Origin: a virus
Lineage: Duplodnaviria > Heunggongvirae > Uroviricota > Caudoviricetes
IMG/VR virus record: IMGVR_UViG_3300028734_000016
Length of the DNA: 64,000 nucleotides
Direction: 5' to 3' (one strand)
Part shown: positions 1 to 64,000 of the stretch, piece by piece
Layout of the letters: every line of letters begins with the position of its first letter
How positions within the stretch are numbered: position 1 is the first letter of the stretch
The notes under the pieces: generated by a model
What the model was told of the DNA's origin: nothing
The model's input: the letters and a program-made list of their open reading frames with translations, nothing else
Database searches by the model: none
Made by a program: the position numbers and the translations under genes

Positions 1-113
1 TTGAATATGTTGAAAATTTTGGATATATATGGCAAACAACTTTAAGTGAGTATGATAAAATTAGAACTGAATATGACCCGTTGTATAGAGATTCTAAAAA
101 ATTTAATTTATAA
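1..113 (+). CDS. 3' end of a gene entering from the left edge; C-terminus ...DSKKFNL
   Basis: frame open from base 3 to TAA at 111-113; ends with the K-F-N-[ILV] tail shared by many plus-strand genes here. Confidence 0.5.
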   Translation, partial: EYVENFGYIWQTTLSEYDKIRTEYDPLYRDSKKFNL

Positions 114-117
114 AAAA

Positions 118-146
118 ATAGCAGATTGTTAATCTGCTATTTTTTT
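118..146. terminator. intrinsic-terminator-like hairpin between convergent genes
   Basis: ATAGCAGAT-tgtta-ATCTGCTAT stem-loop followed by a T7 run. Confidence 0.55.
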
Positions 147-1956
147 ATGCATTTGCATCTACAATTATCATTCTATTATATTGTAATTTTTTAGTATTTG
201 TATCATCAACATACAATTCTTTTGTATAAGGTAAATATACGTAACTTGCTAATGTAAAATCTAATCCTCCAAAATTATCACAAACACTATTCATTTGAAA
301 ATAATCAGAAATTGTATTTATTCTAAAAGAATTTCCAATACTATTATTTGTAAATCCAATACCTACTATATTTGAATCAAATGTACTACCTATGTTATTT
401 GAAGTAAATAAATTGGAAATGTTATTACTAGAGAAAGATGAATTTATACTATTTGACGTGAAATGATCAGCAATTATATTATTTGTAAAAAAATCTCCTA
501 TATTATTATATAAAAATTGTATTCCAATAGAATTAATCTGAAACGTATTTCCAATAGAATTACGGGTAAATTCTGTATTTATAATATTAATGTTGAAATT
601 GTTTCCAATGACATTAGCATTAAAATTGCTATCGATAACGTTATTATAACAGTCATCACCAAGTGTATTACTAGAAAAAGATTTACAAATCATATTATTA
701 TAGAATCTATCACCTATATTATTTCCAGTGAATTCTGTACTAATAATGTTATTATTACATATTCTACCAATTTTATTATATGAGCCAGCAGAACCAATAG
801 AGTTATATTTAAACTCATATCCAATAGAATTAGCCTGAAATGTATCTCCAATAGAATTGTTTTTAAAATTATCATCAATTAAATTGTTTTTAAAATTATC
901 ACTAATACTATTACCAATAAAATTACGACCAATAGTATTGTTATTAAAATCATTACCAATAGTATTGTTATAGAAATTCACATTTATATTATTATCTCTG
1001 AAATTGACACCTAATATAACATTATTTGATCCATTTATTATATTTGAGTTTAATTCAGATATATTAATTATATTTGAATATGATGTTGAATAATAGTAGT
1101 CAAAATCACTCCACATATAACTATCAGTATATCCTGTTGAACATGGCATGGTTATATCACCAAAAATTAGATTATATTCAGTACAACTTATATAAGATAG
1201 ATTATAATACTCAAATAACTGCCAAATACCATTTGAATCATCATTATTATTTGGATTTATATTTGTTGTATTATTTTTTATGCAAATATAAATTTGATTG
1301 GTTTCAGAAAATAATACAACATCTTTGGAATTGTATGTTGTTCCTGAATTCCATATATTTGTAACATTAATTTGCCATCTTCTAAATTTAACATTTCTAA
1401 AATCAAAAGGAAAATCGTTATTTTGTATTGTATCAATTCTTCTGTAAATATAGCCAGTTGTGCATCCTGGTACAACTGTTTGATTATTATTAAAATTATA
1501 ATAAATTACATCTTGTGAATATAAATAAGAATGAGCTTCTGGTTTCAATTTATCTAATCCAATTGCGGTAACTAATAATGGTTCAGTTATACCTGAATTT
1601 AAATCACTAGTATATGGAATTATATGTACTGTACTATAATCAGTAATTAAATATTGTGTACCAATAGTTAATGATAAAGTATTTATCAAATCTAATAATT
1701 CACTATATGTAACATTAGTTACTGATGCTCCTCCTGAAGATCCATTTAAACCTGAAGTTCCAGAAGTACCTGTAGTTCCGTTTATTCCTGATGTGCCATT
1801 AGTTCCGTTTATTCCTGATGTTCCAGAAGTACCTGTATATCCTGTAAAAGAATAAACATCATTAAAATTGGAATTTATTTTAATGAATGATTCTCTTAAA
1901 TTATCTCCAGTTCCATCGTTTGGAGATGAGCCAATATTAATTAATTGTTTGCTCAT
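145..1956 (-). CDS. fibre-like repeat protein: short collagen-like block (GTSGTSGINGTNGTSG...) followed by ~25 tandem 11-residue N-x-I-G-x-x-F repeats
   Basis: 603-aa ORF; repeats read directly from the translation; antisense ORFs 517-783, 1074-1364, 1278-1475 lie inside it and are judged artefacts. Confidence 0.8.
   Translation of the reverse strand: MSKQLINIGSSPNDGTGDNLRESFIKINSNFNDVYSFTGYTGTSGTSGINGTNGTSGINGTTGTSGTSGLNGSSGGASVTNVTYSELLDLINTLSLTIGTQYLITDYSTVHIIPYTSDLNSGITEPLLVTAIGLDKLKPEAHSYLYSQDVIYYNFNNNQTVVPGCTTGYIYRRIDTIQNNDFPFDFRNVKFRRWQINVTNIWNSGTTYNSKDVVLFSETNQIYICIKNNTTNINPNNNDDSNGIWQLFEYYNLSYISCTEYNLIFGDITMPCSTGYTDSYMWSDFDYYYSTSYSNIINISELNSNIINGSNNVILGVNFRDNNINVNFYNNTIGNDFNNNTIGRNFIGNSISDNFKNNLIDDNFKNNSIGDTFQANSIGYEFKYNSIGSAGSYNKIGRICNNNIISTEFTGNNIGDRFYNNMICKSFSSNTLGDDCYNNVIDSNFNANVIGNNFNINIINTEFTRNSIGNTFQINSIGIQFLYNNIGDFFTNNIIADHFTSNSINSSFSSNNISNLFTSNNIGSTFDSNIVGIGFTNNSIGNSFRINTISDYFQMNSVCDNFGGLDFTLASYVYLPYTKELYVDDTNTKKLQYNRMIIVDANA
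276..1056 (-). repeat. coding tandem repeat, ~33-nt period (11-aa NNxIGxxF units)
   Basis: periodicity visible in the ORF translation. Confidence 0.55.
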
Positions 1957-1990
1957 ATTTATTTGATTTATTTTTTTATGTTAATATAAA

Positions 1991-2422
1991 TTAAAAGGTA
2001 TCTGCTGTTATTAATGTAGTATCTGCTGTTATTAATGTAGTATCTACCGTTATTGATGCTCTAGACTTAGTTTCTACTATTATATTGGATATTTTCCAAT
2101 TTAAATTGTTTTTAATTTTAATTTTAATTTTAGCATCATCAATATATCTAAAATCTAACAAATATATGAAATATAGCAAAAATGATTGTATCAAATTCAT
2201 ATTGCTGCTATTATTCGATAAATATTCCAACAAATTTTGACTTTTACCATTTCCTCTTATTGGAATTGGAATTTTATTAAAATCTATAGGAAATTCTTTA
2301 ATAAAAGATAATTTGCTATTATCTAAAAATGTTATAATATTAGTGTGAGAACCAGTTTTAATTTTAAAATTTATCCAATTATTATTTATCCAAACCTTAG
2401 CTTGTTTTTCAACATTATTCAT
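1991..2422 (-). CDS. hypothetical protein (C-terminal TTLITADTTLITADTF duplication)
   Basis: 143-aa ORF co-oriented with neighbours. Confidence 0.45.
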   Translation of the reverse strand: MNNVEKQAKVWINNNWINFKIKTGSHTNIITFLDNSKLSFIKEFPIDFNKIPIPIRGNGKSQNLLEYLSNNSSNMNLIQSFLLYFIYLLDFRYIDDAKIKIKIKNNLNWKISNIIVETKSRASITVDTTLITADTTLITADTF

Positions 2423-2493
2423 ATTCTAAATTGTTTTTTATTATATATAAAAATAAATAAATAAAATATCAACACATCTTATTCAATAACAAT

Positions 2494-2712
2494 TTATGCT
2501 ATATTCAATGTTGTTGTTGTTGTATTTATTATATTTTCTCTATACTCATAACTACCATTTTCCATCATTAAAAAGTTTCCATTTTCTGATAGCATATGAT
2601 TTTCAGTTACATTTAATTCTAACTCTAATTTGCCAGATGTTTTTGAGAAATTGATATAATATTTACTAGTATTATTAGATTTAGATTTTAACACTATTTT
2701 ATTTTTAGCCAT
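2494..2712 (-). CDS. hypothetical small protein
   Basis: 72-aa ORF. Confidence 0.3.
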   Translation of the reverse strand: MAKNKIVLKSKSNNTSKYYINFSKTSGKLELELNVTENHMLSENGNFLMMENGSYEYRENIINTTTTTLNIA

Positions 2713-3209
2713 TATAAAACTTTGTATGATTTTTTATTATATATAATTTTTTATTACGATAAAATATTATTATTTATAAATTTTTTGTTTGACTCAATAA
2801 TATATAATATATAGATTATAAAAAATGTTTTATTTATGAAATGTAAAGTTATAAATTCAAATAAAAATACATTAGAAGAGAAAATAAATGATTGGTTGAG
2901 TACAGAAACAGTTGAAATATTTAATTTTGTACAAACTCAACATAACGAATATATAACTATTACATTTTTTTATTATGATAAATCTGAATTGAGAAAAATT
3001 AAATTGAAAAAATTAGAAAGCAATAAATAAATGGACATAAGAATCCAGTTAGAAAAAGACTTGATAGTCGAAGATGTTGTAGGTACACTTGTATCAGAAG
3101 ATGAATCGTCTAATATTATAGGTGAAATAATATATTATGATGAGATAACTGGTATATCTATCTGTGAATTATATAAAAAATAGAATCAATATTGATTCTA
3201 TTTTTTATT

Positions 3210-3404: not shown

Positions 3405-3512
3405 TATTTTTAAATTGTTTTTTATTGTTTATATATAAAAAAAATATAATTTACTTTTTTTATAAATAATATCTCAATAATTTATATATAATATATAAAA
3501 TAATTTAAAATC

Positions 3513-3782
3513 TTGAAATATATAAAAAAATTTGAAAATAAAAAAGATGAACCAAAAGTAGGTGATTATGTAATTTTTGACTGTCCTATGTCATATGATG
3601 TAAAAATGAATAATCTATACAATTATACAGTTCATAAAATTATAAATATATATTGGGATTCATATGAAACAAATCTAGGACTTAATATAAATAAATCTTA
3701 TCTATTAGATTTTTCAGATAACAAAAGAAAATTACAACAATATGTTAAACTAAAAAAAAATACAGATAAATTTAATATATGA
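3513..3782 (+). CDS. member of MK-x-IKKFE ... KFNI small-protein family; apparent TTG start
   Basis: in-frame TAA directly upstream; N-terminus LKYIKKFEN matches paralogs MKHIKMFE/MKFIKKFE; ends KFNI with stop overlapping the next ATG (ATATGA). Confidence 0.55.
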   Translation: MKYIKKFENKKDEPKVGDYVIFDCPMSYDVKMNNLYNYTVHKIINIYWDSYETNLGLNINKSYLLDFSDNKRKLQQYVKLKKNTDKFNI

Positions 3783-4396
3783 AACACATAAAAATGTTTG
3801 AAACATTTACAAATAAAATTACAATAGGAATAGATATTGATGGTACGATATGTGATTTCGTTAATGCATACAATACACTATATAAAAGATACTTTCCTGA
3901 TAAAGAAATAAATCAGGATCAAAATTGGCATTGGTATGAAACAATGGACTATAATGGTGAATCATCAAAAACATGGTTTAATAATAAAAAATCTGAAGTT
4001 TTTGATATTGCTCAACCATATAAAGGTGCTGTTGATACTATAAACAATATATATGATTTTATAAAAACTCATGGTTTCAAATTAAACATAGTAACTAAAC
4101 AACCTACTGAAGAATCTAAAGAATCTGCTAAGAAATGGTTAGACCATTATGGATTTAAATACGATGACATCATTTTTGCTAATTCATCAATGGATAAATG
4201 GAAATATGCTGATATATTAATAGATGATTCTCAAAAAGTTATTGGAAGTAAACCATTAAGTAAAGTATCAATTAAAATTGAACACCCTCATAATACAGAA
4301 ATTGAAGGAGATTTTAATATTCTTGAAATTAATAATCTAACAATTGATATAATTCAGAAAGCTATATCTAAACTTAAAAATAAAACTACTGTATGA
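3779..4396 (+). CDS. HAD-superfamily hydrolase, 5'(3')-deoxyribonucleotidase-like
   Basis: N-terminal IGIDIDGTICDF (DxDGT motif I). Confidence 0.65.
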   Translation: MKHIKMFETFTNKITIGIDIDGTICDFVNAYNTLYKRYFPDKEINQDQNWHWYETMDYNGESSKTWFNNKKSEVFDIAQPYKGAVDTINNIYDFIKTHGFKLNIVTKQPTEESKESAKKWLDHYGFKYDDIIFANSSMDKWKYADILIDDSQKVIGSKPLSKVSIKIEHPHNTEIEGDFNILEINNLTIDIIQKAISKLKNKTTV

Positions 4397-4860
4397 AATT
4401 TATAAAAAAATTTGAAGATAGATATTCTGATATCTTTTTTAATAGTGATGATAGTGTATTTGAAGCTTGTAGAAGAGGAGATTTAGAAGTTGTACAAGAA
4501 TATATAGAAGTTGAAAAAGGTGATGTGAATAATATAGATAAATATGGATATACACTATTAATACTAGCAGCAGATAACAATAGGATAGATGTGGTGAAGT
4601 ATTTAATAGGAAAAGGAGCTGATATAAACTATCAAGATATCTATAATAGAACAGCATTAAATTATGCTACATTAAGAGAAAACAATGATATAGTAAGATT
4701 TTTAATAGAAGCTAATGCTAATTGGAACTTAAAAGATAATTTGGGTAATGATTTTTTGACGTATTTACTACCAATTAATAAGATTAATATAATTGAAGAA
4801 TATCCAGAACAATATCAAAAATATCTAACTATAAAAAAATCCGAAAAATTTAATTTATGA
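4393..4860 (+). CDS. ankyrin-repeat protein
   Basis: G-x-TLL-x-A repeats with DVVKYLIGKGADIN / TALNYA / IVRFLIEANAN motifs. Confidence 0.8.
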   Translation: MKFIKKFEDRYSDIFFNSDDSVFEACRRGDLEVVQEYIEVEKGDVNNIDKYGYTLLILAADNNRIDVVKYLIGKGADINYQDIYNRTALNYATLRENNDIVRFLIEANANWNLKDNLGNDFLTYLLPINKINIIEEYPEQYQKYLTIKKSEKFNL

Positions 4861-4888
4861 AAAAATATAATCAATTCATTAATGAAAA
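4849..4888 (+). repeat. conserved ~40-45-nt gene-junction repeat (AAATTTAAyATATGAAAAAATATAAyCAATTCATTAATGAA); copies also at ~5274, ~5634, ~6046
   Basis: four near-identical copies read directly in the sequence at consecutive gene boundaries. Confidence 0.8.
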
Positions 4889-5288
4889 TAGAGCATACGG
4901 TAAAGATAATAAAACCAATGATTTTAATTTTAATTTTTTTATATTATTAGAAAATGCGACAGAAGAAAACCAAAGTAAAGCATTTGAAGAATTTAATAAA
5001 TATGTAAATTTAGAATCACATAATATAAAAAATTTATTAATAACTAAATCAAATATTGATGATTTTAAAAATACAGAAATTGAATGGCTTTGGTATATTA
5101 ATGTATATGAGAGTTGGGGTAATGTACGAATACCAAGAGATACAATTGATTTCTTTAAAATGAGATCTACTGATCTTCGTAGTAGTGATAATTTAATTAT
5201 TTCATTAGATGAATTTATTAAAATTGGATTGAAAGGAGTTGAAACTCTTTATAAAGTAAAAAAAGATGCAAATAAATTTAATATATGA
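4857..5288 (+). CDS. MKKYNQFINE...KFNI paralog 1
   Basis: identical 10-aa N-terminus and KFNI tail; ATATGA stop/start overlap. Confidence 0.7.
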   Translation: MKKYNQFINENRAYGKDNKTNDFNFNFFILLENATEENQSKAFEEFNKYVNLESHNIKNLLITKSNIDDFKNTEIEWLWYINVYESWGNVRIPRDTIDFFKMRSTDLRSSDNLIISLDEFIKIGLKGVETLYKVKKDANKFNI

Positions 5289-5650
5289 AAAAATATAACC
5301 AATTCATTAATGAAAAAAATTCTGATGTATTTAAAGTTTCAATAGATATTAAAAATATCACAGATGACGATTTATATAAGCTCAATGAAATATTCAAAAA
5401 ATATTTTGACATTTATGATATTATAAGTCAATATGCGTCATATAGTAATAAACCTCATACATTGGTTTTAGATATAAGTAACAATAAAATAACTACTTGG
5501 TGTATTACAACACCTGATTGGGGTTATGATGAAGATTATATTATAAATATTATTAAACCTGAAGAATTGTTAAATGCTAGATCAAATGGAATTAAAGATA
5601 TTGTAGAATATCTTGAAGCAAGAAATAATACAAATAAATTTAATATATGA
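5285..5650 (+). CDS. MKKYNQFINE...KFNI paralog 2
   Basis: as above. Confidence 0.7.
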   Translation: MKKYNQFINEKNSDVFKVSIDIKNITDDDLYKLNEIFKKYFDIYDIISQYASYSNKPHTLVLDISNNKITTWCITTPDWGYDEDYIINIIKPEELLNARSNGIKDIVEYLEARNNTNKFNI

Positions 5651-6063
5651 AAAAATATAATCAATTCATTAATGAATCAAAAGATATATGGCAAAGAGAA
5701 TCAACAAAAGATGAAACATATGGTCCTATTTTTTACATAAAAAGACCAGGATTTAAGACTGGAGTGTATGATGGAGATATAGTTAAATTAGATAAAGAAT
5801 ATATTGAAAAATTAGACTCTGTATTATATAATAGACATAATGAAAAAAAGACGACTGACAAATTTACTGATAATGATTATAGTAAAGAATATGTTCTAGT
5901 TGATTATGTATGGTATTATGGGTATGTATTAAGAAATTCACTATCTGATATAGAAGATAATGATTTCTTAGGATGGGTACCAACAGGATATGTTAGACAC
6001 CTAACAGACGAAGAAATGAAAGATTATCAATATAAAATACATGCAAAAAAATTTAACATATGA
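5647..6063 (+). CDS. MKKYNQFINE...KFNI paralog 3
   Basis: as above. Confidence 0.7.
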   Translation: MKKYNQFINESKDIWQRESTKDETYGPIFYIKRPGFKTGVYDGDIVKLDKEYIEKLDSVLYNRHNEKKTTDKFTDNDYSKEYVLVDYVWYYGYVLRNSLSDIEDNDFLGWVPTGYVRHLTDEEMKDYQYKIHAKKFNI

Positions 6064-6434
6064 AAAAATATAATCAATTCATTAATGAAAGTTCTAAAAC
6101 TAAATTCAGGTTTGCAATAAATATTAAAGGCATAACAGATGAACAAACAGATCAAGTTATTGATAAACTCAAAAAATATAATCTAAGTCAAAGTGATGAA
6201 CACACTATAAGAAATGATGTAAAAATACAAGGTTTTTATTCAATAATTGTTGATGTGTCAAATTATCCAAATAATACACATATATTTATAATTGCTGTTT
6301 CCACACGAGGATGGGGTAATAATATTGATTATATGCAAAATATGCTATCAATAGATAATTTTTTAGTTATACCATTTGATGATATATATGATAATATTCA
6401 ATATAGAATATACGCAAAAAAATTTAACATATGA
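6060..6434 (+). CDS. MKKYNQFINE...KFNI paralog 4
   Basis: as above. Confidence 0.7.
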   Translation: MKKYNQFINESSKTKFRFAINIKGITDEQTDQVIDKLKKYNLSQSDEHTIRNDVKIQGFYSIIVDVSNYPNNTHIFIIAVSTRGWGNNIDYMQNMLSIDNFLVIPFDDIYDNIQYRIYAKKFNI

Positions 6435-6976
6435 TACATATTAAAAAATTCGAATTCTACGATACCAAAGAATTTACACGTGATTCAGAACCAGAAATAA
6501 ATGATTACGTTAGACTTGATGAAGATTTCTATGAATCTAAAATACCTGAATATTTTATACCTAGAGAAAATGACACAGACTATAAATATAGAATAGGTAA
6601 AATAATTGGATATAATGAACATACAGAACACTATAACGTTAAATTTGATAAATATGAATTGTGGAATAATAATTTTTTAGTTAAACGTGAACAAATAAAA
6701 AGCTATTCTAAAAAAATTGAAGATCTGGAAAATCTGCCATCTGTTGGAGATTATTGTCTGCTTGGTTGGGATAATACGGAATTGTGTAAAGTAATAAAGA
6801 AAGAAAGAGTTGAAAATTTTAGATGGGCTTCAATTGATTATAAGGTTAAAAAAATGAATCCTGGTCCTCACGATGGCACAGGAATTGTTCAAACTGATGA
6901 TGATTCAATGAAATATTGGTCAAGCGATATAAATGATATGAAATCAATTATAGCATCAAAGAAATTTAATGTGTAG
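6431..6976 (+). CDS. hypothetical protein (MIHIKKFE...KKFNV); TAG stop overlaps tRNA 3' end
   Basis: 181-aa ORF, family-type termini. Confidence 0.6.
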   Translation: MIHIKKFEFYDTKEFTRDSEPEINDYVRLDEDFYESKIPEYFIPRENDTDYKYRIGKIIGYNEHTEHYNVKFDKYELWNNNFLVKREQIKSYSKKIEDLENLPSVGDYCLLGWDNTELCKVIKKERVENFRWASIDYKVKKMNPGPHDGTGIVQTDDDSMKYWSSDINDMKSIIASKKFNV

Positions 6977-7047: not shown

Positions 7048-8145
7048 TTATTTTAACCACTTCTTAACTGCTTTACCAGTTACTCCATAAACTCTACCAA
7101 CAGCTTCTAAACTTGTATCAGATATCATTAATCTTAACTCATCTTTTGTTGGTCTGTTCTTTACTTTTCTTTCAGATAATCTGTAGCAGTCATAACATTG
7201 TTTAGAATTGTGTTTAATTTCTTTTCCACATGCACAATAATTTTTTATTAAATTATTGTTTATTTTAATTTCTTTTTTACCTGATTTTAATTTTTTTATT
7301 CTATCATTTCTAATTATATTATAATAATATTCATCAACTTCACTTTTGATATTTAAATTTTTAACACCAAGAAACTCATACATTTTTTTGAAATCTACTC
7401 TTCTATTTACGTTTATTCTATAACAGTTATCTTTACTTATTTGTATAGTATAATGAATATTTATAATATCAAGTGAGTTACAATAAATATCTACTATATC
7501 TTTAGACATATTAGAAAAATTATAATAATAACCGAAATATTTTTTTCCTTCTTTTTTAATTATTGTATTTTTATATAAGCAACCATCTGAATGAAACAAT
7601 CCACGTATTATGTTTTTGTGATTTATATTTTTTATTTGAAAATCTTCTAGTATTATTTTTCTTTTGTGCTTTACTCCTTTTCCTATTTGAGGAAATAAAT
7701 ATTTTAAAGAGTTGGAATATACTGAAACAATAAACATATTATATTTAGTTTTATGAATATTTATTTTATTAAATGGAAATAATATTTTTAAATTATTTTC
7801 ACATTCAGTTACTATATTATAATACTTACTATCTAAAAATATTCGAATTTGATATGATGATCTTTTTGTTTTTATTATATGACCATCTCCTAAATATAAT
7901 CCTAATATATAATTATATTCTAATTTTTTATCAGATAAATAATTATTAATATCACAATTATTTTTTAATTTTTTTTGATTTTCTAATTTATTATATTGAT
8001 TGAATTTTTCATTGTTATTTAACCAATATCTAATATTACTTCTTGGTATATTATATTTTTTACTTAATTCTGACTGTTTTGATCCATTATTATATTCTTC
8101 TATTATTTTTATGATTTCACTAACTTCATATACTCTATATGTCAT
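7048..8145 (-). CDS. LAGLIDADG homing endonuclease (two LAGLIDADG motifs) with N- and C-terminal HTH-like regions
   Basis: YILGLYLGDGHI and IIRGLFHSDGCL motifs; tracked ORF extends to 8295 but that extension translates the tRNA gene, so the ATG at 8145 (MTYRVYEV) is preferred. Confidence 0.85.
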   Translation of the reverse strand: MTYRVYEVSEIIKIIEEYNNGSKQSELSKKYNIPRSNIRYWLNNNEKFNQYNKLENQKKLKNNCDINNYLSDKKLEYNYILGLYLGDGHIIKTKRSSYQIRIFLDSKYYNIVTECENNLKILFPFNKINIHKTKYNMFIVSVYSNSLKYLFPQIGKGVKHKRKIILEDFQIKNINHKNIIRGLFHSDGCLYKNTIIKKEGKKYFGYYYNFSNMSKDIVDIYCNSLDIINIHYTIQISKDNCYRINVNRRVDFKKMYEFLGVKNLNIKSEVDEYYYNIIRNDRIKKLKSGKKEIKINNNLIKNYCACGKEIKHNSKQCYDCYRLSERKVKNRPTKDELRLMISDTSLEAVGRVYGVTGKAVKKWLK

Positions 8146-8249
8146 ATTATTTTTTATTTTATATATAAAAAATTCTATGACAAAAAGAATAAAAATTGAA
8201 CATATTTTTAAATAAATTGTATCATAATGATTAATCATTGAATATATTG

Positions 8250-8337
8250 TACTCCTGGTCGGACTTGAACCGACACGCCTACTATTGTTCAGCACATGTT
8301 TCTAAAACATGGATGTCTACCATTCCATCACAGGAGC
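8250..8337 (-). tRNA. tRNA-Leu (anticodon TAG), type II with long variable arm, A73
   Basis: hand fold: acceptor GCTCCTG/CAGGAGT, D-loop GGAATGGTAGAC, anticodon stem CATGT/ACATG loop TTTAGAA, T-arm GTCGG-TTCAAGT-CCGAC. Confidence 0.85.
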
Positions 8338-8346
8338 GATTTTTTG

Positions 8347-8433
8347 TACCGATGACGGGACTTGAACCCGTATAAGCATATAGCTTGCAAAATTTTAAGT
8401 TTTGAATGTCTACCAAGATTCCATCACATCGGC
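8347..8433 (-). tRNA. tRNA-Leu (anticodon TAA), type II, A73
   Basis: anticodon stem CAAAA/TTTTG loop CTTAAAA; ~16-nt variable arm; T-arm ACGGG-TTCAAGT-CCCGT. Confidence 0.85.
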
Positions 8434-8441
8434 ATATTTTG

Positions 8442-8521
8442 TACTCCTAGAGGTATTCGAAACCTCATCCAAATGGACATCATCTTAAGTGATGCGTGTA
8501 TACCAATTCCACCATAGGAGC
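8442..8521 (-). tRNA. tRNA, anticodon TAA (leucine-type) with only ~11-nt variable region, A73
   Basis: acceptor GCTCCTA/TAGGAGT, Leu-like D-loop GGAATTGGTATAC, anticodon stem CATCA/TGATG loop CTTAAGA, T-arm GAGGT-TTCGAAT-ACCTC. Confidence 0.6.
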
Positions 8522-8530: not shown

Positions 8531-8566
8531 TAAAAGAAAAAACCTCAGTCAAATAAATGACTGAGG
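8531..8566. terminator. perfect 9-bp hairpin (CCTCAGTCA-aataaa-TGACTGAGG) flanked by T/A runs on both strands
   Basis: read directly; followed by TTTTTTCTTTT on the minus strand. Confidence 0.6.
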
Positions 8567-8778
8567 TATTTTTAATATGCTTATATTATTTGTTACAATA
8601 GATATGACATAATATTCTCAGTCCGATTATTCTGTAATAATAGGTTTAAGAGTAGCAAGTTCATTATGTTATTGTAGTTTTTCATATCAGTATATATTAT
8701 CTTAAAAATGTGATTTTTTTCTATTTTTATTATGTAGTACAAAAGTACAAAAAAGTTTTCAATCTACCAAACTTTTTA

Positions 8779-47126: not shown

Positions 47127-47206
47127 ATTGTCGTTATTGTATTTTTTTCTATATATAAAAAAATAAACTTTGTAATATAAAAATAATAAAAATAATAAAA
47201 ATTTTT

Positions 47207-49725: not shown

Positions 49726-49845
49726 ATTTTTTGATATTTTTTTATGATAATTACTTAATAAATGTTAAATATTATATATAAAAAAATCATTTAATTTTTT
49801 AACAAAAAAGCCTCTGATTATCAGAGGCTTTTATCAAAATATATG

Positions 49846-50151: not shown

Positions 50152-50153
50152 TA

Positions 50154-52682: not shown

Positions 52683-52686
52683 AGGC

Positions 52687-52965: not shown

Positions 52966-52966
52966 T

Positions 52967-53260
52967 TTATTGTTCTATTGTGAGAGATAATCCTTTCTCT
53001 TCTAATAATTTTTTGTAAGGCTCCAATGATTCTTTTGAGCCAGTTTTAATAATATCTTTACCTATAAGATGAACATTATAAGCTGATGCTTGACCTCTTT
53101 CAAATGAAAATTTTAAATATGCCATTAGACAAGTTATTACCCATTCGAATGAATTCACATCATCATTCCACAATATTAATTTATACTCTTCTTCAGTATT
53201 ACTAGAAATACCATTTTCTGATAAAATGTCTTCCAATGATTTTGTTTTTATTTTCTCCAT
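52967..53260 (-). CDS. clpS: ClpS-like N-degron adaptor
   Basis: YKLILWNDDVNSFEWVITCLMAYLKFSFERGQASAYNVHLIGKDII matches the ClpS core. Confidence 0.75.
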   Translation of the reverse strand: MEKIKTKSLEDILSENGISSNTEEEYKLILWNDDVNSFEWVITCLMAYLKFSFERGQASAYNVHLIGKDIIKTGSKESLEPYKKLLEEKGLSLTIEQ

Positions 53261-53468
53261 AACTTATTATATATGTATATACTTTACTATATAGTTTATT
53301 TAATTATCTATTGTAATTGATAGTGCAAATTTACAACATTTTTTCCTAATAACAAAACATTTTATGATATTATTTCAATAATATATTCAATTGTCTGATT
53401 ATAAGTAAAATTTATACTAAATATATCACAATATGAATCACTCATAGTTATATTTACTGCTTGTCCTG

Positions 53469-56517: not shown

Positions 56518-59500
56518 TTAATAAACTAATTCTAAGTGAGAAACTAATTCTTCGTCTTTATCAACTTCAATTGATGCATCAAAATTTATACTATGCACCT
56601 GTTCAATAATTACAATTTTATTTACTTTATTTTTCAACTCATCAATAAATTCTAAAAATTGCTGAACAGATTTTGTTTTTTTACCATCAATTAATTTACC
56701 CATAATTTCATCCAATACAATAAACGTAGATTTTGATTTGACATTTATTTGTCGTAATGCTATCTTCAATGCAAGAGCACAAAATGTTCTTTCTTTTCCA
56801 GAACTTTCAATTGCATTTTGACTGGAATCTAGCCTATCATCTGCACTAAGCCTTAAATTTAAATTATCATCAAAAAATAATGTAAAATTAACATTTATTA
56901 ATAATTCATTCAATTCTTTATTAATTAAATGAATAGACTTTTTCAATAAAAAAGTAGGTAATCCATCACGACTAATACATTTTTGATACTCCTTTAATAA
57001 CTCATCTTTTTTCTTTTGTTTTAAATATTTTTTTATCTTAGTTGAAATTATAAAAATATCATTTTCTTTGAGTATAATATTTTTTTCCATTTCTATATTT
57101 ATTTGTGATAAATTTTTTATTTGTTCTTTAACGACTTTAATATTATTATCCACATCATCTATTGATAATTGAATAATTTTATTTTCATCTATTTTAACTT
57201 TATATTCTTGATATTTTTCTATTTCTAATTTTAGTTCTTTTATTTTAAAATTAAAATTTTCGATTGATAAAATAATATTATCTCTATTTGACATTTTTCT
57301 GTTTCTTAACTCAAAATTATCTTTCTTAGTTTCCTCAATTGAAATATCATCATCTATACCTTCAACATTAAAATTTTTCAATTCAGACTCAATATTTTTT
57401 ATTACAATTGATGTATCTAATTTGCCTTTTTCTATGTTTTTTATTAGTTCTTTCCCTTTCTCAATATTTTCATTTAATGTTTCAGATTCATCAAATATGT
57501 TATTCTCAATTTTTTCTATTAATTTATTTAAATCTAAATTGTCTTGAGTCAACTTCTTACTGCTACCAATTTCTTTCAATTTAGATAATATATCATCAGG
57601 GTATTCTCCTTGAATTAACCTTTTTTTCATGTCTTCCAAATTAAGAATATTTGTATTACATTCAATAGATTCATTTTTTAAATCTTTATACTTTAATATA
57701 CAATCTTTAATTATCAAAGAATTTGGTTCTTTTTTAATTTCAAGACTTTTAATTTTATCTTCTAAATGAGCTAAGTGTTCTGAATATTTTGGATCATTTT
57801 TATCATAATCTCTACCACAGCTAGGACAAGATTTTGAATTTTTGAATGTTTCTATTTCTTTATCTAATTCCTCATTTGAATTTTTAGCGTTAACTCCATC
57901 TTTTTGTAATAATTTTATATTAGATGATAATTCTTTTAAATTTAATTCTAATTCTTGAATTTCTGATGTTATTTTTTTTATTTCATCCTTTATGATATTA
58001 GATTTATTATTTTTAATAACTTCAATTTGTAAATCATTTGCATTTATTTTTGATGATATTTTTCTAATTTCAGATTGTTTTAATTCATCAATTTTAATAT
58101 TAACTTTATCTATTTTATTATCAGATTCTAATAATGAAGTTTTCAAATTTGAAATTTCATCTTTTCGTTCAGAAATTTTCAAGTTCGTTTGCTTCAATTT
58201 AATTTTATATTCATCAAGTTTAGATGAATCGAATTCAGTAGGTAATTTATCAATGTCTCTATCTAAAATTGTGCTTTGAATTTTAGATTCTTCAATTTTA
58301 GATTCATAATTGTTGATGGTATTCAAATTTAAATCTTCATTAAAAGTTAACATTGATAAATCAATATTATTTAATTTTTTATTTAAATTATCTCTATCTG
58401 TATTATAATCAGATAATTCTTTTTCATGCTTCTCAATATCAGAATTATTAGTATCAATAATATCTTTAATATCAATAATTTCAGTATTCAATTCTTTCAC
58501 ACGAGATTCAGAATCTTGAATATTTACTATTAATTTTTCTTCTACTAATTCTTTTTTATATTCTTTAAATTCATTCAATTTAATTTCAAAAATATCATAA
58601 CCAGCATCTCTGATGATGTTATCCATAAATACACTTCTATTTTCTGATAATAAATCATTTAAATTATCAGCATTAGTGAATGACAATCTAATAAAATCTT
58701 TCAAATCTCCTAAAATAGAGTCCAATTCTTTTTGAGTCTTAGCTTTAATTTCATCTGTTAATTTATTTTCTTCACAAATATTCTCGCTTTTATAAAAATC
58801 CAATGATGTAGGACAGCTTGTTAATGCCGTGTGATTCTTATTCCAAACTCTTTCTGTCTTTCTCTGAATAACGAATTTATTACCATTTGAATTAATAATT
58901 GCACCACCATTAACATAATCTAAATCTCTTTTGTTATTTATATATCTTGAATCTCCAAATTTTTCAGGACTTAATGTTGTCGTAGTCTTACCATAAAGAA
59001 TATAAGTAAGTGCATCTAAAATAGTTGTTTTACCTTCCTGATTTTCTCCATGAATTTGTACAATTCCATTAATATCAGCCCAATCTATAACATTATCATC
59101 TCCATAAGATTTAAAATTACTAAACCAGAATTTATCAATACTCCATTCAGTATTTTTTAAGCATTCTACCAATTGAACTCTACTATTTATTATATCATCA
59201 ATTTTAAGAATAGATTCAATATCATCTTTTTTGTATTTTTGCTCTTCTAAATATTCATTAAATATTTCTTTCTGTGTTTCAGTATCAGTCAAATCAATTG
59301 ATTCTGATAGCATTTTTGATGATAATATATCTGTGTATAAATAAACTTTTTCAAAAATAACTTTAGTTGTGCTAAATTTATTTTTAATATAATCTCTTAT
59401 TTTCTTTTCATTAACAGTATTTATAATTGATGAATATTCTTTCCAATGAACTTTAATTTCAGTATCTGTTCCAATTTTATCAGCAGACAAATTTAAATTG

Positions 59501-60273
59501 TCATAATCTGATGATTCATCAATATAAAGATTTATGAAAGTGTGTTCATTGTCAATATCATATTCAGTGACATCAAAATCTGATGGTGATTTTATATCCC
59601 ATAATAAAAAACCATGATTTTCAATTGTTTCACCATATGATTGTTGTATAGTTGAGCCACAATATGCAGCAGATTTATCATTTCTTAAATACTGACGCTT
59701 GTGGATATCACCTATTAGCACAAAATCATTATTATTAAAATAATTCATATTTTTGTACTTGTTTGCATCATTAAAAACTTTACCAGTATTTGATGTTACA
59801 TTTAAAACTGGGTCATGAAATAACCCAATATATATTTTACCATCATATTTTTTAATATTTTTCCATGGATCGTTGTCTTTATCTGAGTGTTCATAAACAA
59901 CCCAAACAAAATTGTTATCTTGCTTATCATCATAAAATCCAGTTTTATCATAATAAGTAACATTTGGATTATTCATTAGTTTAACTACAGTTTCTATGCT
60001 GTCGATTCTATTTAAATTTTTCTTACGAATATCATGATTACCACGAACTATTATAACTTTAGCAATTTTTGATAATTCATTTAAGAAATTTCCAGCTATA
60101 ATTTCAGCTTCATTTGAAATTTCAATATAACTTTCAAATAAATCACCAACAATAACAATTCTATCTGGTGTAATTTTGCGTAATTTTTTTATTATTTTTT
60201 GAAAAATATCATTATATTCTTCATGTCTTTCAAGGTTTCTAATGTGAACATCAGCTAAGTGAGCAATTTTCAT
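56518..60273 (-). CDS. fused SbcD/Mre11-type nuclease + SbcC/Rad50-type ATPase, single 1251-aa polypeptide
   Basis: N-terminal phosphoesterase motifs HLADVH, VGDLF, RGNHD, IGDIHKRQ; Walker A GENQEGKTT; long coiled coil with CPSCGR zinc hook; C-terminal SSGKERTF...IVLDEIMGKLID and VHSINF. Confidence 0.85.
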   Translation of the reverse strand: MKIAHLADVHIRNLERHEEYNDIFQKIIKKLRKITPDRIVIVGDLFESYIEISNEAEIIAGNFLNELSKIAKVIIVRGNHDIRKKNLNRIDSIETVVKLMNNPNVTYYDKTGFYDDKQDNNFVWVVYEHSDKDNDPWKNIKKYDGKIYIGLFHDPVLNVTSNTGKVFNDANKYKNMNYFNNNDFVLIGDIHKRQYLRNDKSAAYCGSTIQQSYGETIENHGFLLWDIKSPSDFDVTEYDIDNEHTFINLYIDESSDYDNLNLSADKIGTDTEIKVHWKEYSSIINTVNEKKIRDYIKNKFSTTKVIFEKVYLYTDILSSKMLSESIDLTDTETQKEIFNEYLEEQKYKKDDIESILKIDDIINSRVQLVECLKNTEWSIDKFWFSNFKSYGDDNVIDWADINGIVQIHGENQEGKTTILDALTYILYGKTTTTLSPEKFGDSRYINNKRDLDYVNGGAIINSNGNKFVIQRKTERVWNKNHTALTSCPTSLDFYKSENICEENKLTDEIKAKTQKELDSILGDLKDFIRLSFTNADNLNDLLSENRSVFMDNIIRDAGYDIFEIKLNEFKEYKKELVEEKLIVNIQDSESRVKELNTEIIDIKDIIDTNNSDIEKHEKELSDYNTDRDNLNKKLNNIDLSMLTFNEDLNLNTINNYESKIEESKIQSTILDRDIDKLPTEFDSSKLDEYKIKLKQTNLKISERKDEISNLKTSLLESDNKIDKVNIKIDELKQSEIRKISSKINANDLQIEVIKNNKSNIIKDEIKKITSEIQELELNLKELSSNIKLLQKDGVNAKNSNEELDKEIETFKNSKSCPSCGRDYDKNDPKYSEHLAHLEDKIKSLEIKKEPNSLIIKDCILKYKDLKNESIECNTNILNLEDMKKRLIQGEYPDDILSKLKEIGSSKKLTQDNLDLNKLIEKIENNIFDESETLNENIEKGKELIKNIEKGKLDTSIVIKNIESELKNFNVEGIDDDISIEETKKDNFELRNRKMSNRDNIILSIENFNFKIKELKLEIEKYQEYKVKIDENKIIQLSIDDVDNNIKVVKEQIKNLSQINIEMEKNIILKENDIFIISTKIKKYLKQKKKDELLKEYQKCISRDGLPTFLLKKSIHLINKELNELLINVNFTLFFDDNLNLRLSADDRLDSSQNAIESSGKERTFCALALKIALRQINVKSKSTFIVLDEIMGKLIDGKKTKSVQQFLEFIDELKNKVNKIVIIEQVHSINFDASIEVDKDEELVSHLELVY

Positions 60274-60442
60274 ATATTTATCTAATATTATTTTATTTTA
60301 TTTTTAAGTTTATATTTTTACAAATATAATGAATTTATTTCATAAATCAAAATATTTATAGTTTAACTTTATTTTATATGATCAAAAACATTAATTGTTT
60401 TATAATATATAATAAATTATTAAAAAATAAACAATAAAAACT

Positions 60443-61621
60443 ATGAAATGGACATTAGAAATATGTCAAAAAGCAGCATTAAAATATGAATATAGAAGTG
60501 ATTTTAAAAAATTAGATAATTTAGCATATAATGCTTGTGTAAAAAATAAATATTTAAATATTGTTTGTTCACATATGAAATATAAAATTAATACTCCAGG
60601 ACATTGGACACACAATAAATGTCAAGAAGCAGCATTAAATTATAATTCTATATCAGATTTTCAAAAAAATGAAGCAACTGCATATAATAAGTCATTAAAA
60701 AATAATTGGCTAAATAGTATTTGTTCTCATATGAATTTAAGTCATAAACCTAATAATTACTGGACAATAGAAAAATGTCAAGAAGTAGCATTAAAATATT
60801 TAACCAGAACTGATTTTAGAAAAAATGATGCTAGTGCATATAGAATATCTATTTCAAAAAAATGGATAGAAAAAATTTGTAATCATATGACTTATGTTAA
60901 TAATTATTGGAATTATGATAAATGCAAAGAAGAAGCATTAAAGTGTAATAGTAGAAATGATTTTCAAAAAAAATATAGAGGTGCTTATAATTTTTCAAAT
61001 GTAAATAATATATCTAATGATATCTGTTCACATATGATAAAAATTGGTAGTAAAGAATTTAGATGTATTTATGCTTTTGAATTTGATGATAATTGTGCAT
61101 ATATTGGATTGACATATAATATAAAAATTAGAGAGCAGGAGCATATTAAAAAAGGTCCAATTTACAAACATTTACAAAAAGCAAGCAATAAATATAAATT
61201 GATACAATTAACTGACTATATTAATAAATCAGAAGCACAGAAATTGGAAGAATATTATATGAATGAATACAAAAATAATAATTGGAAATTATTAAATACT
61301 AACAAAAAAAGTACATTAGGAGGATCTGCTAAATTTTGGACATATGAAAAATGTAAATACGAGGCATCAAAATATATTTATAAAGATGATTTTCTAAAAA
61401 ACAATAGTAGTGCAGCAGCATCTGCAATTAAAAATGAATGGTATAAAGATATATGCTCTCATATGATAGCAAAAAAAAGAAAAAATTCATGGCCAGAAGA
61501 TGATATTATTTTTTTAATTGAAAATTATCATATAGGAATAAAATGTTGTGCTAAAAAATTAAATAGGTCTTATTATTCTGTTAAATCTCAATATCAAGTA
61601 TTAAAAAACAAATTCAAATAA
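60443..61621 (+). CDS. GIY-YIG endonuclease with 5 tandem ~48-aa W-T-x-EKCQEAALKY...ICSHM repeats
   Basis: GIY-YIG core IYAFEFDDNCAYIGLTYNIKIREQEH; repeats read from the translation (4 before, 1 after the catalytic core). Confidence 0.75.
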   Translation: MKWTLEICQKAALKYEYRSDFKKLDNLAYNACVKNKYLNIVCSHMKYKINTPGHWTHNKCQEAALNYNSISDFQKNEATAYNKSLKNNWLNSICSHMNLSHKPNNYWTIEKCQEVALKYLTRTDFRKNDASAYRISISKKWIEKICNHMTYVNNYWNYDKCKEEALKCNSRNDFQKKYRGAYNFSNVNNISNDICSHMIKIGSKEFRCIYAFEFDDNCAYIGLTYNIKIREQEHIKKGPIYKHLQKASNKYKLIQLTDYINKSEAQKLEEYYMNEYKNNNWKLLNTNKKSTLGGSAKFWTYEKCKYEASKYIYKDDFLKNNSSAAASAIKNEWYKDICSHMIAKKRKNSWPEDDIIFLIENYHIGIKCCAKKLNRSYYSVKSQYQVLKNKFK

Positions 61622-61635: not shown

Positions 61636-62055
61636 ATGATAACAGAATTCAAATTATTCGAGAACTCAGATGATAAAGTCACATTGGTATTGGATGATAT
61701 TGTAGATTACTTTGATAGTCATGAAGATTCAATACGAAATTTCATTTTCAAATTATTTAATTTCAACAATAACATTGTTGAATTTAATTGTAATAAATGT
61801 ACAGATGATATAAATGGTGTTACAAATTTTATACATTCAAATAAACATCATAAAGGAATTATAAACGGTAGAAGTTATGGATTTAATTATGATCTTAAAC
61901 ATATATACTTAACATTGAGATTGAAAAGAATAAAATTTAGTCATATAGTAGACACAAATTCTCAGATGACAATTTATGGAAATATTCCTGGTGATATAAA
62001 AAAAATAATAAATGATATTAATATAAAAAGACAAGCAAATAAATTTAACATATGA
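61636..62055 (+). CDS. MIxEFKLFEN...CNKC...NKFNI family protein
   Basis: paralog of 62470-62907. Confidence 0.6.
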   Translation: MITEFKLFENSDDKVTLVLDDIVDYFDSHEDSIRNFIFKLFNFNNNIVEFNCNKCTDDINGVTNFIHSNKHHKGIINGRSYGFNYDLKHIYLTLRLKRIKFSHIVDTNSQMTIYGNIPGDIKKIINDINIKRQANKFNI

Positions 62056-62468
62056 TACTAACTACTTCAGCAATTTTAAACATTTTAATAATACTTTTTT
62101 TATTATTAATATCTGGTATATCTAAATCTATAACTGATATATCATCTTCTCCTAATTTATTTTACAAGTCAAGATTATATTTAAAATATAAATTAAATCC
62201 AAAATTTTGGGAACAAGGATTGGGGTCTCTCAATAAATATAAAAATGCCAATCCATTAAATGGAGAAAAATTCATAGGAAGTACTACTATTTTTGTTGTG
62301 TTTACTGATGCATGGCATTTATTTTGGTTTATATCTGAAATAACTATGATTCTTGCATCTGTTATAATCACATTGAATACATCTATTTGGTTTGTTATGT
62401 TGGCATTTTCAATTAAACTGATATTTTTTGAAATTGTTTTTAATTATTTAAGGAAAAAAATTAATTAA
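62052..62468 (+). CDS. multi-pass membrane protein
   Basis: 138 aa, 3-4 hydrophobic segments; ATATGA overlap. Confidence 0.5.
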   Translation: MILTTSAILNILIILFLLLISGISKSITDISSSPNLFYKSRLYLKYKLNPKFWEQGLGSLNKYKNANPLNGEKFIGSTTIFVVFTDAWHLFWFISEITMILASVIITLNTSIWFVMLAFSIKLIFFEIVFNYLRKKIN

Positions 62469-62469
62469 T

Positions 62470-62907
62470 ATGATTATAAATTTCAAAATATTTGAAAATA
62501 CAGAAACCGAAACAACATTCATACTAAATGATTTGTTAAATTACTATTCTGGTAGTTACACGAAAATTAAAAAATTTCTTAGTAATTTGTTGATAGTTGA
62601 TACATTAGTTGAATTTAATTGTAAGAATTGTTATGATAAAGAAAAAAATATTTTTATAGATGTACCTCAAATAGTTAAAGGTAGAATCAACACCATAACA
62701 GAGTGTACGACTGGATATCAAGGCACTTTACAACACAAGAAAAGAATATTTGTTCTATTATCATTAATATTAACTACAAATGATAATTATATTTACCATG
62801 TTGACAATAAATCATCATTTACTATTTATGGTAATATTACAGAAAAACAGAAAAAAGTAATCAATGAAATGAATTTAACAAGAATCTCAAATAAATTCAA
62901 CTTATAA
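62470..62907 (+). CDS. MIINFKIFEN...CKNC...NKFNL family protein
   Basis: paralog of 61636-62055. Confidence 0.6.
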   Translation: MIINFKIFENTETETTFILNDLLNYYSGSYTKIKKFLSNLLIVDTLVEFNCKNCYDKEKNIFIDVPQIVKGRINTITECTTGYQGTLQHKKRIFVLLSLILTTNDNYIYHVDNKSSFTIYGNITEKQKKVINEMNLTRISNKFNL

Positions 62908-62952
62908 TAATATAAAAGATGATAATTATTAGTAAAGGTTATATTTTTTTTG

Positions 62953-62960
62953 TATCTTTG
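62953..62960 (+). promoter_or_regulatory. plus-strand TATCTTTG box ~30 nt upstream of the ATG at 62990
   Basis: TTTTTTGTATCTTTGCG. Confidence 0.45.
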
Positions 62961-62989
62961 CGAAATATAATTATAAATAAAAATAATAT

Positions 62990-63421
62990 ATGAACTCAAA
63001 AATAAATTCCTCTATAAAAATTAGTTCTGATACTGAAAAATTTCTAAATAATTATGAAGAAATATATAAAAAGAAATATGAAGAAAATATAACTGATAGT
63101 TTCACATATAGAGGTATACCATATTCTTGTTATGATGAATTCGCACTATTAATATTTATGTATAAATATCCATATATTTGGAAAACAGATAATAAAAAAA
63201 CAAATAAAAAAATACAAAGAGAAGTAAAAAAATATACATTAGATTCTGTGATAACGAAAATAGAAGAAACACCAAAATTATATTATGAAATAGAAGAATA
63301 TACAAATAAAACATCACTGGTTTGGAAAAGTTCATATTTCATTTTTTCATACTATTTATTTTTAAATGCTGTAAATTATACTCCATCATGGATAATATCA
63401 ACAAGAAAATTTAATATATAA
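62990..63421 (+). CDS. hypothetical protein (...RKFNI tail)
   Basis: 143-aa ORF. Confidence 0.5.
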   Translation: MNSKINSSIKISSDTEKFLNNYEEIYKKKYEENITDSFTYRGIPYSCYDEFALLIFMYKYPYIWKTDNKKTNKKIQREVKKYTLDSVITKIEETPKLYYEIEEYTNKTSLVWKSSYFIFSYYLFLNAVNYTPSWIISTRKFNI

Positions 63422-63530
63422 TTATGATAATTGAAAAATTTAATATATTTAAAAGAAAAAAGAAAATATATAATTATGATAATTGAAAAATTTAATATAT
63501 TTAAAAGAAAAAAAGAAAAAGAAAAATATT
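63421..63530 (+). repeat. tandem direct duplication (~52 nt x2) of a gene start AATTATGATAATTGAAAAATTTAATATATTTAAAAGAAAAAAG
   Basis: two copies read directly; first copy gives a 20-codon truncated ORF. Confidence 0.8.
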
Positions 63531-63820
63531 TCTTAGTTTTATTCAAACCAGATGAAGGAGATTATTTTATATTATATAAAATAATTCTTGGAATTGAAGA
63601 ATTTGTTCTTACTGACAAAATTGATTCAAGTAATATAGATATCCTTAAAAAGAAAAATACCAACATTGAAAGTTTTACTACAATTGAATTAGCCAACGAT
63701 AGATTAGATATTGTAATACACAAATACAATGATCACCAATGGGCTAATAGAAATAATTGGATGATAAAAACTTTTGATGAGTTGAATTTTTTATTCACTA
63801 CAAATAAATTTAATATATAA
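63476..63820 (+). CDS. MIIEKFNIFK...NKFNI family protein (start placed at the ATG of the second repeat copy)
   Basis: tracked ORF 63431-63820 begins at a non-ATG codon inside the duplicated leader. Confidence 0.55.
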   Translation: MIIEKFNIFKRKKEKEKYFLVLFKPDEGDYFILYKIILGIEEFVLTDKIDSSNIDILKKKNTNIESFTTIELANDRLDIVIHKYNDHQWANRNNWMIKTFDELNFLFTTNKFNI

Positions 63821-63840
63821 AAAAAAAACATAAATAATAA

Positions 63841-64000
63841 TGAAAAAATTAGTAGATTTTGGCGAATATGTAAAAGAAAAAATTGAATTTCCTCAGGGTG
63901 GTGATATTGGTGGTAATCACAAAAAAAAGATTTCTGATGAAGAATTTGAAAAAAATCCAAGCGTAAAAGGAATAACATCAAACGCTTATACTGTGGAAAG
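63841..64000 (+). CDS. 5' part of a gene running off the right edge (MKKLVDFGEYVKEK...)
   Basis: ATG at 63841, open to the window end. Confidence 0.4.

Follow-up and report, generated by a model that had tools for sequence, protein, structure and literature searches.

According to Al-Shayeb et al. (2020), every phage genome larger than 634 kb belongs to the Mahaphage clade, for which Bacteroidetes hosts are predicted; they also reported that huge phages that carry an S1 gene rarely have Shine-Dalgarno (SD) sequences. Genes for ClpP, ClpS, and ClpA or ClpX are each known from some jumbo phages, where they were noted singly (Iyer et al. 2021). The Bacteroidetes themselves have a published expression signature, which comprises a -7 element (TAHHTTTG), the lack of SD sequences, and an enrichment of A from -14 to -11, along with a weak TTTG at -33 (Baez et al. 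2019). Here we describe a stretch of 64,000 nucleotides from the IMG/VR virus record IMGVR_UViG_3300028734_000016 ("the window" refers to this whole 64-kb stretch). We conclude that the window is very probably a piece of a tailed huge phage, from a contig of about 711 kb with a GC content near 24%. Its lineage is uncultured, and among deposited phages it is related only to the 462- to 735-kb huge phages of Al-Shayeb et al. (2020). The host most likely belongs to the Bacteroidota or to a close relative within the Fibrobacterota-Chlorobiota-Bacteroidota (FCB) group.

Since huge phages that carry translation genes and are predicted to infect Bacteroidetes have already been described, the window adds a member and not a category: the phage is a further representative of a known group and has some unusual features of its own. 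Even so, its lineage is distinct, as its GC content is 24% and the contig approaches the upper end of phage sizes. Four details merit follow-up: two classes of promoter-like motif, a complete Clp module, a deformylase homologue without its catalytic residue, and a family of small proteins that share terminal tags.

Relatives of the window

The link to the huge phages runs through a 628-amino-acid (628-aa) protein (coordinates of all the main features are in Table 1). A residue-for-residue copy of this protein sits on a metagenomic contig of 711,471 bp, and because of this identity we took the genome to be larger than 200 kb. Seventeen IMG/VR viral contigs (up to 501 kb) encode relatives that are 60-93% identical. 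When we compared the protein to 50,697 deposited phage records with tblastn, we found six matches only, all from Al-Shayeb et al. (2020): a 735-kb genome that was deposited twice (LR756501/3) and genomes of 642 kb (LR756502), 636 kb (LR756504), 635 kb (LR745206), and 462 kb. The best matches of ClpC among complete phages are the 642-kb and 635-kb genomes. Furthermore, LR756502 encodes a homologue of the 215-aa protein that adjoins the 628-aa protein. Across the relatives a block of genes is kept, namely Tdk, NusG, S1, the 628-aa protein, ClpC, and ClpS. In short, the window shares with the Mahaphage-clade huge phages their size class, their S1, peptide deformylase, and tRNA genes, and the rarity of SD sequences, and no other deposited phages have a homologue of the 628-aa protein.

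The 628-aa protein has no match in PHROGs, and a profile search of sequences from the PDB was empty, which leaves it without a structural or sequence homologue in these searches. The AlphaFold model has a mean confidence (pLDDT) of just 55 and contains few helices, so the model does not support reading it as a capsid protein. Beside it on the minus strand lie an 82-aa open reading frame (ORF; 43689-43937) and a 424-aa protein (43954-45228), which are kept across the clade; the 82-aa ORF is 48% identical to part of its larger neighbor.

GC content is 21-27% along the whole window. We identified 108 non-overlapping ORFs, which cover 92% of the window under genetic code 11. They end in TAA (80), TGA (19), or TAG (9), and the use of all three stops, together with the coding density, rules out an alternative genetic code. 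Roughly half of the ORFs that we tested have no match to a family, and megablast of 24 kb of the window against the phage collection found no match. The Lak megaphages (which infect Prevotella and belong to the Mahaphage clade) are likewise very large and AT-rich with a host in the Bacteroidota. Lak phages reassign TAG. In contrast, TAG is the stop codon of nine genes in the window, where the standard code gives the 92% coding share. No Lak record was among the deposited phage records that matched the 628-aa protein.

As expected of a huge tailed phage, the window carries two putative tail or baseplate genes. The protein at 145-1956 matches the N-terminal domain of T4 gp9/10 (PF07880, 26.6 bits versus a cut-off of 25) as well as the Collagen family, and its tblastn matches include gp99 of phage PAU, a Clostridium phage tail fibre, and LR756504. 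Tail-fibre PHROGs match this protein and the second collagen-repeat protein (54011-55651), largely through the collagen repeats.

Expression signals

The lack of SD sequences that was claimed from the sequence alone is borne out by counts: from -20 to -4, an SD 4-mer (GGAG, GAGG, or AGGA) precedes just one of the 108 genes, versus 5% of background windows, and 9 of 366 genes across the clade. Leaders contain 2-8% G and 55-69% A at -20 to -10, and A makes up 58-69% at -16 to -11. We also agree with the proposed TTG start at 3513, because the N-terminal motif of its protein family begins exactly there.

Terminators of the hairpin and T-run type, another feature noted from the sequence alone, are far more frequent than in shuffled sequences. 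There are 20 perfect matches (about 13 sites, many of them bidirectional), of which 16 are intergenic, compared to 0-2 in shuffles; a separate terminator scan found 8 versus 1.3 expected. A scan with the sigma-70 consensus was at the chance level (209 versus 218).

A TAnnTTTG box had been reported upstream of several genes. This claim held for a specific, oriented subset of the boxes but not for the generic pattern, which is unenriched in the window. Because the generic count is at chance, we treat only the specific subset as evidence. We examined 169 upstream regions, drawn from 11 related loci: TAnnTTTG occurs 42 times in the sense orientation versus 14.8 expected, while the antisense count is 21 versus 20.5 expected. 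Across the clade, the boxes peak 20-49 nt before the ATG, and the dominant form is TAT[C/A]TTTG[T/C]A, which we call class A. Within the window, oriented class A boxes lie 26-65 nt upstream of eight genes, including clpP, the ligase, the clpS-clpC operon, sbcDC, and four others. The variable positions of these boxes are TC, TA, or AA and never G. The exact sequence TATCTTTG is found in five upstream regions, which is 21 times the expectation. A TTTG at a distance that would suit the -33 element is present upstream of clpP, and the other class A boxes have T-runs only. Taken together, SD depletion, the A-rich leader, and the oriented TAHHTTTG-type box match the signature that Baez et al. (2019) described for Bacteroidetes.

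We also identified a second motif (class B), in which a T-run is followed by TATATA[AT]A. It occurs 92 times versus 37.6 in shuffles, and it is placed 13-32 nt before the ATG, with clustering at 10-30 nt. Class B motifs precede about 19 genes (for example, at 2423-2493, 3405-3512, and 47127-47206), such as fibre-adjacent genes, the 628-aa protein, the methyltransferase, and the first small-gene array, and these overlap little with the class A genes. The motif recalls the late promoter of T4 (TATAAATA). The class A boxes might be read by the primary sigma factor of the host and drive ClpP, ClpS-ClpC, the ligase, and SbcDC, with roles in replication, repair, and takeover, while the class B boxes could be phage-specific later promoters for the fibre-adjacent genes, the 628-aa protein, and most of the small-gene arrays. 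Two separable motifs amount to a testable map of early and late genes.

The host and alternative explanations

The huge-phage relatives, the tail-type proteins, and the Bacteroidetes-type signals support the jumbo phage with a Bacteroidota-like host that the sequence-only reading had proposed. Several observations weigh against this interpretation. First, there is no terminase, portal, or major capsid gene in the 64-kb window. Second, the published huge phages are distant: amino acid identity to them is just 30-58%; within the 40-50 kb around their homologues, only 1-3 of the window's proteins have counterparts; and GC content there is 31-32% versus 24% here. (The same differences from the Mahaphage-clade genomes mark the window as part of a distinct lineage, with about 17 relatives in IMG/VR.) Third, generic TAnnTTTG occurs 124 times in the whole window versus 134 expected, and it is not enriched in intergenic regions either. 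Fourth, we deduce the host phylum (Bacteroidota or FCB) from the expression signals and the literature; a scan of a genome collection with ClpP was uninformative as to the host, as the matches were picked by shared 8-mers and were mostly from Bifidobacterium. Fifth, one homologue of the 628-aa protein was deposited under a metagenome-assembled genome (MAG) of Candidatus Dojkabacteria. Finally, both the proposed early and late order of classes A and B and all of the functional roles are inferred.

The alternative that survives best is that the window is from a huge phage whose host is some other lineage with few SD sequences, either in another FCB phylum or in the candidate phyla radiation (CPR). 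We obtained no direct link to a host, the MAG with the 628-aa homologue is labelled as Dojkabacteria, and TAnnTTTG-type promoters have been discussed in the literature for green sulfur bacteria. However, the loss of SD sequences, the A-rich stretch at -16 to -11, and the TAHHTTTG box fit the Bacteroidetes signature in combination. Also, the 628-aa protein matches only huge phages among the deposited records, and Bacteroidetes are the predicted hosts of those that exceed 634 kb. A CPR host is implausible because a 711-kb phage would be about as large as a whole CPR genome, and we take the Dojkabacteria label to be due to mis-binning, which is a simpler reading. Overall, we consider a host outside of the Bacteroidota to be unlikely.

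It is far less probable that the window comes from an extrachromosomal element that is not a virus, for example from a megaplasmid with acquired phage-like genes. A megaplasmid would explain why the window lacks capsid and packaging genes and perhaps why about half of the tested ORFs lack a family match, but it would not explain the tail and baseplate-type proteins, and the related sequences come from viral contigs in IMG/VR and from circular phage genomes that were curated. Furthermore, no families for plasmid replication, partition, or conjugation turned up in our Pfam scans of the window's proteins.

Least credible of all is a reduced, AT-rich bacterial chromosome (such as that of a Bacteroidota endosymbiont of about 0.7 Mb) or a nucleocytoplasmic giant virus. 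A size of about 711 kb and 24% GC do resemble symbiont genomes, and bacterial-type housekeeping homologues are present, but the absence of operon synteny, the many orphan genes, the three kinds of homing endonuclease, the fibre proteins, and the hypervariable arrays argue against a chromosome. A giant virus does not fit with the compact code-11 genes that overlap by 4 nt, the tRNAs of bacterial type, or the intrinsic terminators. The absence of synteny had been claimed from the sequence alone and is apparent at two loci: nusG has orphan genes as its neighbors instead of the secE-nusG-rplK arrangement, and clpP is 35 kb from clpS-clpC. More broadly, we saw no sign of bacterial chromosome synteny or of genes of the nucleocytoplasmic-virus type, either of which would have contradicted the sequence-only reading.

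A complete Clp module

The window encodes all three components of the bacterial N-degron pathway (ClpS, ClpA/C, and ClpP), each with its key motifs. ClpP retains an intact Ser/His/Asp triad (CASMG, MLHH, and RD). It scores 243 bits against the ClpP model NF011091, as compared to 68 bits against the model for head-maturation proteases, and the equivalog cut-off of 361 bits is not reached. ClpA/C has the Clp_N domain, two sets of Walker A/B motifs, and a GIGFG loop, which is of the kind used for docking to ClpP. A class A box lies ahead of clpP and another lies ahead of the ClpS-ClpC operon, 35 kb away. With its catalytic and docking motifs intact, the module is complete and looks functional. 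It would degrade or remodel host or phage proteins via the N-degron route. Whereas Iyer et al. (2021) noted these genes singly in jumbo phages, here all three lie within one 64-kb window, along with strongly conserved genes for S1 and NusG.

The phage ClpP has an N-terminal extension of about 45 amino acids (MHKNEFKKFATKHLG...), which we presume to be typical of ClpP from Bacteroidota. The two closest matches in the genome collection (L027 and L028) share the extension; one of them is labelled as a Prochlorococcus single-cell genome.

Translation and transcription factors

The deformylase homologue has the motifs GLSAPQ, ERCLS, and HQFDH instead of the canonical GxGxAAxQ, EGCLS, and HExxH. Thus, the catalytic glutamate is replaced by glutamine, while the metal ligands (Cys, His, and His) are kept. 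The change to glutamine and the ERCLS motif are common to relatives that are 88-91% identical, and the canonical motifs, with QHEYDH, are retained in deformylases from distant members of the clade, which lie on 501- and 640-kb contigs. The protein is probably not an active deformylase, and the loss of the catalytic glutamate suggests a role in binding only.

Residues 52-380 of the S1 protein align to positions 12-346 of the rpsA model and include about four repeats. Bacterial S1 has six repeats, and the best rpsA models give 116 bits versus cut-offs of 524-624, so we did not classify this protein as bS1; going by these scores, it is a paralogue-grade S1-repeat protein that resembles rpsA. Identity across the relatives is 64-96%. 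This protein might help to load A-rich, SD-less phage mRNAs onto host ribosomes. Similarly, we consider the NusG protein to be a paralogue and not the housekeeping NusG because its score (109.5 bits) is under the equivalog cut-off (135.7 bits). It could keep long transcription units processive.

Among leucine codons in the window, 60% are TTA, and the leucine tRNAs may serve this bias. The tRNA with the CAA anticodon has a variable loop of 5 nt, without the long arm of bacterial leucine tRNAs, and its amino acid identity is uncertain. Its Rfam score (37.7 bits) is the lowest of the four.

Small-gene arrays that are defined by their termini

The sequence-only reading had described tandem arrays of hypervariable small genes. 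We confirmed the tandem arrays of paralogues, but those at 3513-6976 and at 61636-63820 belong together, in a single family that is defined by its termini. An N-terminal tag, MKx[IYL][KN]xF[EI], begins 10 of the 108 proteins (and occurs internally three times), and [KR]FN[ILV] ends 12 of the 108 (for example, at 5274-5288, 6420-6434, and 63806-63820), with one internal occurrence in 18,753 positions. Between these termini, the proteins are unrelated to each other; orphan domains are present, as is an ankyrin protein. Two members, the NT5C enzyme and a 373-aa protein, have the N-terminal tag only.

In the window and its flanks we identified 24 distinct members of the family. The family is represented at 3513-6976, 21121-21447, 29786-30907, 38225-38695, and 61636-63820, and also in L006 and L108. 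One member has just four homologues among 5.8 billion proteins. In distant relatives, the tag is always N-terminal, and MKYIK.FE is also present in the published 642-kb genome (LR756502). In a confident AlphaFold 2 model of the protein encoded at 6060-6434, the tag is disordered and the C-terminal motif ends a long helix. Within the first array, a repeat of about 50 nt at 4857, 5285, 5647, and 6060 encodes the end of one protein together with the tag of the protein that follows. KFN[ILV] is also kept where no downstream gene overlaps.

The tag resembles the capsid-targeting sequence (CTS) of phage T4. The CTS is a decapeptide at the start of T4 internal proteins: ipII and ipIII start with MKTYQEFIAE, and ipI starts with MKTFKEFTST. 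The internal proteins of T-even phages are diverse proteins that counter host defences and have only the CTS in common. In the window, proteins start with MKKYNQFINE (6 of 10 residues are identical to MKTYQEFIAE) or with MKx[IL]KxFE (which is similar to ipI), so the tag reads as a CTS-type peptide of about 10 residues, M-K-x-(Y/F)-(Q/K)-E-F. Furthermore, as in T4, the tag is attached to unrelated cargo in hypervariable tandem loci that lie beside a tRNA cluster with an endonuclease. The gene for the free-standing LAGLIDADG endonuclease lies amid the tRNA genes and adjoins the tagged array; in T4, segB is within the tRNA cluster near ipI.

There are also differences. T4 has no counterpart to the strictly C-terminal KFN[ILV], and the tagged proteins are mostly acidic or neutral, while the T4 internal proteins are described as highly basic. 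The likeness to the CTS spans only about 10 residues, in a proteome that is rich in lysine and asparagine. T4-type prohead proteases cleave after (L/I)xE, and just some of the members have an I-N-E or L/I-F-E site after the tag. The resemblance to the CTS is a lead and not a proof.

Tentatively, then, the arrays may be a clade-wide cargo system, although this idea could well be wrong. In this scenario, the disordered, CTS-like tag would send unrelated proteins (with ankyrin repeats, an NT5C nucleotidase, and orphan alpha/beta domains among them) into the capsid, to be injected with the DNA; the junction of about 50 nt would let the cassettes shuffle; and the tag would mark proteins that are ejected and are probably anti-defence proteins. 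If so, then the T4 mechanism would extend to phages of Bacteroidota and to the largest known phages. Should the terminal tags prove to be targeting signals, packaged effectors could be found through them in the sequences of uncultured huge phages.

Other genes and elements

All of the genes that the sequence-only reading listed are present, the protein-coding ones with Pfam or NCBIfam support (ClpS, ClpA/C, ClpP, the deformylase homologue, S1, NusG, four leucine-type tRNAs, LigA, Tdk, NT5C, Sir2, the N6-adenine methyltransferase, and SbcD-SbcC; Table 1). It had also listed homing endonucleases and fibre-like repeat proteins, and we found three kinds of endonuclease and two collagen-like fibre proteins.

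Table 1. Coordinates of features in the 64-kb window, with the basis for each assignment.
Feature	Position	Strand	Basis and remarks
Tail/baseplate fibre-like protein	145-1956	-	T4 gp9/10 N-terminal domain and collagen repeats
First array of tagged family, eight translationally coupled genes	3513-6976	+	4-nt ATGA overlaps; all with N-terminal tag; seven end in KFN[ILV]
NT5C/HAD nucleotidase	3779-4396	+	Pfam; part of first array
Ankyrin protein	4393-4860	+	Cargo in first array
tRNA, anticodon CAA	6973-7046	-	74 nt, short variable loop
LAGLIDADG homing endonuclease with helix-turn-helix domain, free-standing	7048-8145	-	Pfam
Three tRNA-Leu (UAG, UAA, UAA)	8249-8521	-	tRNA scans
SPFH/Band 7 lipoprotein	11211-12170	-	Pfam; lipobox scan
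N6-adenine-type DNA methyltransferase	12301-13092	+	EPSAGNG and GNPPYG motifs; weak Pfam match (E = 0.009)
ClpP	14636-15391	-	PF00574 (E = 1.7e-54); NF011091; class A box 15429-15436
LigA, NAD-dependent DNA ligase	18335-20218	-	Pfam/NCBIfam; class A box 20253-20260
Peptide deformylase homologue	23479-23913	-	Pfam; alignments
Sir2/CobB-type NAD-dependent deacylase	26451-27128	-	Pfam/NCBIfam
Four tandem paralogues, 67-81 aa	28346-29203	-	Successive overlaps of exactly 11 nt
Tdk, thymidine kinase	36692-37288	-	Pfam/NCBIfam
Terminator (example), bidirectional hairpin and T-run	37710-37737	.	Hairpin scans
Further terminators	8542-8567, 39334-39361, 39970-39995, 49808-49830		Hairpin scans
NusG paralogue (NGN and KOW)	38785-39300	+	Kept across clade
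S1 protein	40005-41162	-	Pfam/NCBIfam
DUF7487-type homing endonuclease	42222-43025 and 43028-43294	+	Split over two frames; homing-endonuclease PHROGs
628-aa beta-rich protein, clade-specific	45240-47126	-	Low-confidence model; matches in IMG/VR and huge phages
Operon: ClpS, 92-aa ORF, ClpA/C, 101-aa ORF	49846-53260	-	Class A box 53326-53333
ClpA/C	50154-52682	-	Pfam/NCBIfam; Clp_N, two AAA+ modules
ClpS	52967-53260	-	Pfam/NCBIfam; NDD...VH pocket
Collagen-repeat tail-fibre-like protein	54011-55651	+	Pfam, PHROGs
SbcD-SbcC fusion nuclease	56518-60273	-	Pfam, phrog_35725; class A box 60321-60328
GIY-YIG endonuclease-domain protein	60443-61621	+	Pfam, PHROGs
Second array of tagged family	61636-63820	+	4 of 5 ORFs end in KFN[IL]

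The SbcD-SbcC fusion aligns over residues 1-567 (SbcD and the start of SbcC) in a single piece with proteins from jumbo phages of Tenacibaculum and Chryseobacterium, which are both Bacteroidota, and the same stretch aligns with phages of Sphingomonas and Microcystis. Phages PAU (Sphingomonas), PTm1, PTm5, and pT24 (Tenacibaculum), and MA9V (Chryseobacterium) have an SbcD-SbcC fusion, but they differ from the window in that their genomes are 210-235 kb and identity is just 23-30%. For the Sir2 protein, the best matches are CobB-type deacylases, so we set aside a defence-type Sir2. If the SPFH protein is read from an internal ATG, it has a lipoprotein signal (MKKQLILVCVLVVALMSS directly ahead of C), which agrees with the signal peptide that was claimed from the sequence alone.

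The LAGLIDADG gene likely starts at the ATG at 8145, which has a class B motif ahead of it. The DUF7487-type endonuclease is missing from all 17 related loci, as expected because it is a mobile gene; the identical frame split is present in independent assemblies (L001 and L002). The four tandem paralogues at 28346-29203 begin with MKYK(V/A)GD, except that the fourth begins with MRYKVGA, and the copies in relatives are 39-52% identical.

Finally, the intergenic region at 34875-35218 (344 nt) contains three successive hairpin and T-run elements, has a folding z-score of -4.1, and is 81-89% conserved in the relatives. An Rfam scan of 33.2-38.3 kb by E-value gave a single sub-threshold match and none for this region, which may be a small RNA or a stacked terminator.

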